Shown in pieces: positions 55,415 to 56,100 of a stretch of DNA of 64,000 bases; within the stretch, counting starts at the first letter, position 1; each line of letters begins with the position of its first letter. The notes below the pieces were generated by a model. That model saw nothing but the letters and a program-made list of their open reading frames with translations. It was not told the DNA's origin and made no database searches. The DNA comes from Escherichia coli (GTDB taxonomy: Bacteria > Pseudomonadota > Gammaproteobacteria > Enterobacterales > Enterobacteriaceae): the NCBI RefSeq assembly GCF_003334785.1, contig NZ_QOWV01000001.1. One strand, given 5' to 3'. Made by a program: the position numbers and the translations under genes.

Positions 55415-56100
55415 ACCACTCCTATATAGTACCCAGACTATGGGTCTATGGATTTTGTCATTTTGTTTAAATCAATGAATAATATCCTCTTATCATCATG
55501 ATATTTGTATGGTGCAATCATGATGAGCTTCTCAGAGAATAATTCTCTATTACCGGGCAAAATCAGGAATACAGGAATTAATATATATTTAACATCCCCC
55601 TTACAAAGGTGAGTTTATATCGAGTTATTCCCTAAGTTGTCGTTACTTATTCCAATTCGTTACTATAAATATGGCAAAAATATTACAACAAACAGCGGTT
55701 AAAAAATTTGGTGAAGATTTTTTGTAATAATCCTAATTAGTTATGGGAATTTCGCTTGATGTATCTGCATAACAAAAACAATATGCGCCATTTTTGCATT
55801 ACTAATAAGAAAAAGCAAAAAACATCGATATTCATTTTTGGTCAATGGGTTTTCTGGCCTATCGTTGTTATTGTGCTACTGGTTATCATTTTCATCTTGC
55901 CAGCATATTGGAGCGTGATCAATTTTGATCAGCTGTGAAGGGGGCTGATGTGTAGTGATACAAAAACTTACGTTATATCACTGCTAATGAGATATCCGTC
56001 ATCTGAACACTTATGTCTTTAATTATTCTCGTGGTTCACTATAGGCAATAAGCACAAAAGTGTAGGATGTTACAAGAATGATTAGGACTAGGTGAAATGA

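Follow-up and report, generated by a model that had tools for sequence, protein, structure and literature searches.

The ycgV-ychF spacer and its open reading frame

The analysed DNA, a stretch of 64,000 nucleotides referred to below as the window, comes from an Escherichia coli chromosome of K-12/B type, on which the genes follow one another as dhaR, ycgV, ychF, pth, ychH, dauA. The autotransporter adhesin gene ycgV (52547..55414, - strand), which is accessory and often pseudogenised, and the gene ychF (56183-57274, - strand) are separated by a spacer of 768 bp (55415-56182). On the + strand of this spacer, divergent from ycgV, lies an open reading frame (ORF) of 59 codons (55759..55938), running from an ATG at 55759 to a TGA at 55936-55938, with its K-12 equivalent at 1256297..1256476 of NC_000913.3. 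The ORF heads away from ycgV, whose start codon is located 345 bp to the left, and towards the palindromic intrinsic terminator of ychF (56101..56126), which could serve both directions. Upstream and in frame, a TTG is found one codon away (55756) and a TAG six codons away; the latter makes a longer N-terminus of the ORF impossible.

The ORF was originally predicted, from the sequence alone, as an unannotated small membrane protein gene with a weak ribosome-binding site in an AT-rich region, or else as a chance frame. The descriptive part of this prediction is borne out. The 59-codon frame with its ATG at 55759 is present and has the predicted translation, the spacer has a GC content of 33.5%, and no feature is annotated in the spacer in the curated K-12 record NC_000913.3 or in sampled PGAP genomes. 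The ribosome-binding site is indeed weak, with a Shine-Dalgarno duplex of -4.2 kcal/mol that is equalled or surpassed by 23% of the ATGs in the window; pth and dauA have similar values. A single sigma-70-like (consensus-type) site is predicted on the + strand, 275 bp upstream of the ORF, and no promoter-like site is predicted on the - strand opposite to it. An Rfam search of positions 55300-56300 on both strands yields nothing but sub-threshold matches to the ychF terminator. In the literature searched no report was found of a gene, small RNA or peptide in the ycgV-ychF spacer. The peptide is absent from the searchable parts of the small-ORF supplements of Stringer 2021, PIRT-seq, Huecker 2017, Fesenko 2024 and smORFer, and the searchable parts of the Cappable-seq supplements contain no transcription start entry for the ORF interval.

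The spacer as a published promoter island

The spacer itself has been described as a promoter island. Entry 1255333_301 (ycgV/ychF) is one of the 78 'promoter islands' listed by Panyukov and Ozoline in 2013 (PMC3661553, Table 1), which are AT-rich regions with dense promoter-like signals and little full-length RNA. This island is reported to be bound by H-NS in every ChIP study compared by these authors, and to adjoin a foreign gene (PMC3661553). Conversion of its coordinates from U00096.2 places it at approximately 55572..55872, so that its overlap with the ORF is confined to approximately the first 114 nt of the latter. The spacer, with 33% GC, is AT-rich DNA beside a horizontally acquired gene, as expected for a promoter island. 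Unlike the claim made for the ORF, however, the promoter-island description concerns the DNA and not a reading frame. In addition, genomic SELEX has located a minor-sigma holoenzyme peak within the spacer (PMC5493296), and the first 126 bp beside ycgV, 55415-55540, have been found to bind YbdO (PMC11681634).

The ycgV gene and the spacer are missing from about 1,300 of the 5,426 complete E. coli genomes. The single B2-type strain examined, Ecol_867, has a tyrosine integrase and ISEc24 in place of both ycgV and the spacer. Sequence common to the window restarts at ~56096 in this strain. The junction is thereby placed a few bases before the ychF terminator, on its left side, and this position points to a possible integration hot spot. 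Where ycgV is present it may be a pseudogene: O157:H7 and O145 have a partial copy, PT62 has a frameshift and FDAARGOS_944 an internal stop.

A hydrophobic segment with codon-phased thymines

The translated ORF has the basic N-terminus and the single strong hydrophobic helix that were originally noted, with six Lys/Arg among residues 1-23, ahead of a hydrophobic stretch in which the 19-residue Kyte-Doolittle mean reaches 3.06 (codons ~29-47). This is the highest value among the 357 ORFs of 40-120 aa found in the six frames of the window, and it exceeds that of YmgF, a real small membrane protein encoded in the same window. In being short and having a predicted transmembrane helix, the ORF resembles a small membrane protein gene. 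The length of the ORF is unremarkable, as dinucleotide shuffling of the spacer produces an ATG-initiated ORF of at least 59 codons in 30% of cases. An equally hydrophobic ORF occurs in 0.0-0.1% of block-shuffled spacers (blocks of 30-90 nt, local composition kept). The hydrophobic helix, IFIFGQWVFWPIVVIVLLVIIFILP, is encoded by codons 24-48 (55828..55902, + strand), a T-periodic segment that has no counterpart in Citrobacter. In this segment T accounts for 76% of the nucleotides at codon position 2, versus 28% and 40% at positions 1 and 3, respectively (local shuffle P=2.5e-4 per frame). Hydrophobicity this extreme is unusual for one window, and about one chance case is expected per genome with a few thousand spacers. 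'Pure chance' is not a full explanation of the 3-periodic thymines in this segment.

These properties bring up the first alternative to a meaningless frame, namely that the ORF is a young membrane microprotein gene, restricted to E. coli, that arose at the margin of the acquired ycgV region. On the evidence as a whole we regard this as unlikely. The product would have a cytoplasmic basic tail and one N-in transmembrane helix, followed by a C-terminal tail of 11, 19 or 36 residues that would be dispensable and hence polymorphic. It might further be imagined, with as little confidence, that the gene is expressed on the lifting of H-NS silencing and that the N-terminal 48 residues are the active part. 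The strong 3-periodic T pattern and the extreme hydrophobicity argue for such a gene, and a terminator is available downstream on the same strand. The weak Shine-Dalgarno sequence and the lack of a predicted promoter nearby argue against it, as does the fact that the ORF is unannotated despite years of small-protein searches in K-12, the peptide being missing also from those parts of the small-ORF supplements that could be searched.

The size of the ORF, its single hydrophobic helix and its intergenic location are also those of type I toxins such as Hok, Ldr, TisB, Ibs and ShoB, which are likewise small hydrophobic peptides encoded in spacers. A toxin-like peptide at this locus, kept silent by an antisense RNA and H-NS, seems highly improbable. 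Neither strand of the ORF matches an Rfam family, the strand opposite to it lacks a promoter-like site, and an antisense RNA partner is not predicted. The polarity of the charged segment differs as well: Hok, Ldr, Ibs, TisB and ShoB are unlike the ORF with its polar N-terminus of 23 residues ahead of the helix.

Alleles within E. coli

Allelic variation was analysed in an alignment of the spacer from 20 genomes, picked across the identity range, and by counts in 5,426 complete E. coli genomes, ~4,120 of which contain the ORF region, as a single copy in each. The most prominent difference between the alleles is a segment of 75 extra bp (25 codons) in the long alleles as compared to the window, consisting of GCCAG, 70 bp and GCCAG. 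At the corresponding junction in the window a single GCCAG remains (55899..55903). The window, which has the same allele as K-12 and BL21-type strains, probably carries a derived form that arose by an in-frame deletion between the GCCAG repeats through microhomology. A 75-bp deletion is likelier than an insertion because no carrier genome has more than one copy of the extra segment. For this reason, and because a deletion is more parsimonious, we rejected the possibility of a small mobile insertion. The indel divides E. coli roughly in half, with ~1,950 genomes deleted versus 2,122 with the segment.

The ORF products encoded by the 20 sampled alleles differ widely in length. Three alleles encode 84 aa, nine encode 67 aa due to a TAA at codon 68 (Q68*), and five encode 59 aa via the 75-bp deletion. 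One allele each is limited to 61 aa (W62*) and 29 aa (W30*), and one, a short allele, has a frameshift in the A-run. Eighteen of the 20 genomes have codons 1-48, and with them the helix, intact; the start codon is invariant. Among the 5,426 complete genomes a 71-bp segment is found in 2,122, at least 1,387 of these matching the TAA-stop type exactly, and the TGG..CAA haplotype required for the 84-aa product occurs in 276 genomes at most. Protein clusters contain further variants, including read-throughs into IS elements, in-frame deletions inside the helix and additional frameshifts. In some assemblies, codon 43 or 64 is the last before the ORF reads on as foreign sequence (…GNDSNLLIVFYVQIMPDDFVMQLHRF), in a manner that resembles IS insertions. 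The strain FDAARGOS_944, mentioned above for its internal stop in ycgV, is also the one with the W30* allele of the ORF.

A frame disrupted in close relatives was one half of the condition set for refuting the original prediction, ribosome footprints being the other, and such disruption is what is observed, comprising W30*, W62*, Q68*, the A-run frameshift, IS insertions and the 75-bp deletion. The reading of the ORF as a small membrane protein gene thus fails this half of the test that was set for it. The allele spectrum also bears on the young-microprotein explanation, in which the gene would still be segregating as isoforms of 84, 67 and 59 residues, with the codon-phased T as the first trace of selection for membrane insertion; this scenario, too, has little probability. 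The invariant start codon, the integrity of codons 1-48 in 18 of 20 alleles and the in-frame nature of the 75-bp deletion speak in its favour, but W30*, the A-run frameshift, IS insertions and in-frame helix deletions all exist.

The same variation can be viewed from the opposite direction, with the ORF as the decaying relic of a once functional gene for an 84-aa membrane protein with two helices, which would have arrived with the ycgV island. Loss would have occurred by nonsense mutations and microhomology-mediated deletion, parallel to the frequent pseudogenisation of ycgV. A number of features fit this picture: several haplotype backgrounds keep the 84-aa frame open, the 75-bp piece encodes a second hydrophobic stretch, the independent truncations (Q68*, W62* and the GCCAG-repeat deletion) resemble decay, ycgV itself is pseudogenised in several strains, and the T periodicity is codon-like. 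Nevertheless, we are doubtful about such a relic, as no homologue is found elsewhere, even beside the ycgV orthologues of five other lineages, and the Citrobacter counterpart of the initial third of the ORF is non-coding, which is hard to square with an old gene carried in with ycgV (see below). For a type I toxin the allele spectrum is unfavourable as well. The ORF occurs as a single copy per genome and has neither paralogues nor a family, in contrast to the recurring family or the several copies per genome expected of such toxins, and its null alleles are frequent, with no sign of addiction.

Substitution patterns

The 84-codon frame contains 27 variable sites, with 14, 4 and 9 on codon positions 1, 2 and 3, respectively. 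In the same alignment, the control genes ychF and ycgV show distributions of 1/1/22 and 7/6/15. Compared to the consensus, the ORF has 9 synonymous and 21 non-synonymous changes, the latter including two or three nonsense changes. The resulting pN/pS of 0.62 is indistinguishable from neutral (synonymous-excess test, p=0.16), in a test that has low power as it involves only 30 substitutions. Off-frames of the same DNA score lower (0.39 for the +1 frame and 0.35 for the -0 frame), and the controls give 0.03 for ychF and 0.32 for ycgV, although the difference between the ORF and ycgV is not significant. Nucleotide diversity in the ORF, at 0.0285, equals that of the flanking spacer, for which values of 0.027 on the left and 0.038 on the right were obtained. 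Non-synonymous sites of the ORF thus appear to vary as fast as the non-coding DNA around them.

A comparison of synonymous and non-synonymous changes had been proposed as a check of the prediction; as run here within E. coli, it reveals no protein-level constraint (pN/pS 0.62, p=0.16, 30 changes). Purifying selection and a scarcity of null alleles, which would be expected of a small membrane protein gene, are not observed, bearing in mind the low power associated with 30 changes. The changes in the helix are mostly V/I/L exchanges, which could be taken in favour of a young microprotein. However, such exchanges are the automatic outcome of first- or third-position changes in NTN codons, and the constraint on the ORF is no greater than that on the neighbouring spacer.

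Searches outside E. coli

No homologue of the 84-aa form was found outside Escherichia/Shigella among 5.8 billion clustered proteins. The protein matches of low identity are frameshifted copies of the same locus. Similarly, a phmmer search against 1.84 billion representatives returned variants of the same locus and two low-complexity matches, and nothing else. NCBIfam and PHROGs contain no family that matches the ORF below E=0.07, and phages gave no match to the ORF. Searches of plasmids with tblastn and blastn returned just mislabelled pieces of the E. coli chromosome. In Salmonella, searched by tblastn and blastn, the ychF terminator is the sole sequence in common with the spacer. A scan of species-representative genomes with the N-terminus of YcgV returned only two contaminant E. 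coli contigs, and hence no outgroup within Escherichia. These contigs, assigned to 'Actinomycetes bacterium MAG OH_SBrB_24' and 'Nocardioides malaquae Y6', are 100% identical to E. coli ycgV/ychF and most likely represent contamination. Retention of the ORF and its frame in related species or genera, as expected for a small membrane protein, is therefore not what these searches show.

The DNA upstream of ycgV in Citrobacter

Orthologues of YcgV were found through the protein database, after which their contigs were retrieved. The closest, with 81-83% amino acid identity, are from Citrobacter farmeri and relatives; more distant orthologues occur in Leminorella, Morganella, C. rodentium, Pragia and Pantoea. 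A Citrobacter orthologue of ycgV (83% identity at the amino acid level) is located behind a porin gene, its other neighbours being IalB and an ESPR autotransporter of very large size. The sequence preceding the Citrobacter gene can be aligned with the E. coli spacer over ~440-460 bp, up to ~55855-55875 or ORF codon ~33, beyond which identity drops to background. The alignable E. coli DNA, at 55415..55860, includes the published YbdO-binding probe (55415-55540). That ~450 bp of upstream sequence align despite the different context in Citrobacter indicates that ycgV travels with its upstream DNA as one module.

Within this module the part that overlaps the ORF has no coding capacity in Citrobacter. 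At the position of the ATG Citrobacter reads TTT or CTT, and the frame used in E. coli runs into stops within two to six codons. An A-rich box in E. coli (55798..55826, ATTACTAATAAGAAAAAGCAAAAAACATC), which encodes the residues ITNKKKQKTS of the 'basic N-terminus', is 27/30 identical to its Citrobacter equivalent in a blastn alignment, but is non-coding there, with a 1-nt indel in the A-run; the porin terminator then follows in place of the T-rich tract. In its first third the ORF thus coincides with non-coding DNA that is conserved as part of the ycgV upstream module, since the Citrobacter DNA aligns to it without containing the ORF. The part encoding the helix appears to be specific to E. 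coli, judging from the extent of the alignment. A divergent hydrophobic ORF is absent upstream of ycgV at all six orthologue loci examined, representing five lineages and including Citrobacter, Leminorella, Morganella and C. rodentium. The conservation across Enterobacteriaceae on which the original prediction could have been verified is consequently lacking: Citrobacter DNA that is alignable with codons 1-33 has no ATG, contains stops and holds no hydrophobic ORF. The A-rich box (ATTAnTAATAAGAAAAnGCAAAAAACATC), ~385-410 bp upstream of ycgV, is the best-conserved distal piece of the upstream DNA (Citrobacter locus L023, ~3572-3611). It is a candidate regulatory element or H-NS nucleation element.

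Comparison with known systems

In several respects the ORF resembles the validated small inner-membrane proteins YohP, AcrZ and YmgF. It encodes fewer than 100 residues with one hydrophobic helix and N-terminal positive charges, it is intergenic, and its hydrophobicity is at or above that of YmgF. The genes of YohP, AcrZ and YmgF are, however, annotated, conserved beyond E. coli and translated, whereas the ORF is unannotated, found in E. coli only, polymorphic for stops and deletions, and free of detectable protein-level constraint.

De novo membrane proto-genes that emerge from thymine-rich intergenic sequence are described in yeast. The ORF is similar to these in its restriction to one lineage, the T-rich tract encoding its helix and the non-coding nature of its 5′ part in the outgroup. 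Non-coding outgroup DNA, which is expected in the case of a de novo gene, is present for the first ~100 nt, the helix part being without outgroup sequence. Unlike the yeast proto-genes, the frame of the ORF is not fixed within the species.

The absence of purifying selection is shared with the non-functional open or 'pervasively translated' sORFs of AT-rich intergenic DNA (Stringer et al. 2021, bioRxiv 10.1101/2021.07.02.450978; PMC11188072), for which hydrophobicity has been explicitly linked to AT/T-rich sequence (Fesenko et al. 2024, PMC11188072). The ORF differs from those sORFs in that its hydrophobic stretch goes beyond the expectation from local composition.

Origin of the ORF

Taken together, the data make it probable that the ORF is a non-functional reading frame specific to E. 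coli, and not a gene. Its restriction to E. coli, its allele spectrum, its neutral-like substitutions, its absence from the outgroup and its absence from annotation were all observed in the present analysis; the H-NS occupancy and transcriptional silence of the spacer are taken from PMC3661553. The ORF would be situated at the far edge of AT-rich, H-NS-bound DNA with a regulatory or silencing role, which would have been brought in together with the horizontally acquired ycgV. We infer that the spacer DNA serves as part of the silencing or regulatory region of ycgV. Within it, an A-rich tract would be read as the Lys/Asn-rich 'basic N-terminus', and the T-rich tract that follows would be read as Ile, Val, Leu and Phe, giving rise to the 'transmembrane helix'. 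Any peptide produced from the ORF would presumably be a by-product without effect on fitness. That the ORF is open in most E. coli may reflect the young age of the species relative to the mutation rate, several independent breakages having already occurred.

A young microprotein or a decaying relic would draw its chief support from the codon-phased thymines; both are opposed mainly by the lack of relatives and the non-coding 5′ third in Citrobacter. Of the two possibilities offered by the original prediction, a gene is disfavoured, with neither conservation nor constraint, and the chance ORF in AT-rich DNA is favoured, with the T periodicity left unexplained by it. The ORF is not a new kind of element. 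As a non-functional frame, it can serve as a calibration case, in which foreign DNA bound by H-NS yields, from an A-rich tract and the T-rich one behind it, a convincing ORF with a basic tail plus transmembrane helix, and it illustrates that allele spectra within a species, combined with a single outgroup, suffice to show that such an ORF is unconstrained. If the ORF were nevertheless a young or decaying gene, it would be a rare bacterial membrane microprotein gene caught in birth or death, of which natural alleles encoding 84, 67 and 59 aa could be compared.

The window contains a second hydrophobic ORF without annotation. It encodes 75 aa (24337-24564, + strand) and is located in the minC-ycgJ spacer, with a 19-residue mean hydrophobicity of 2.51. 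No feature is annotated under this DNA, which is present in 5,421 of the 5,426 complete E. coli genomes.
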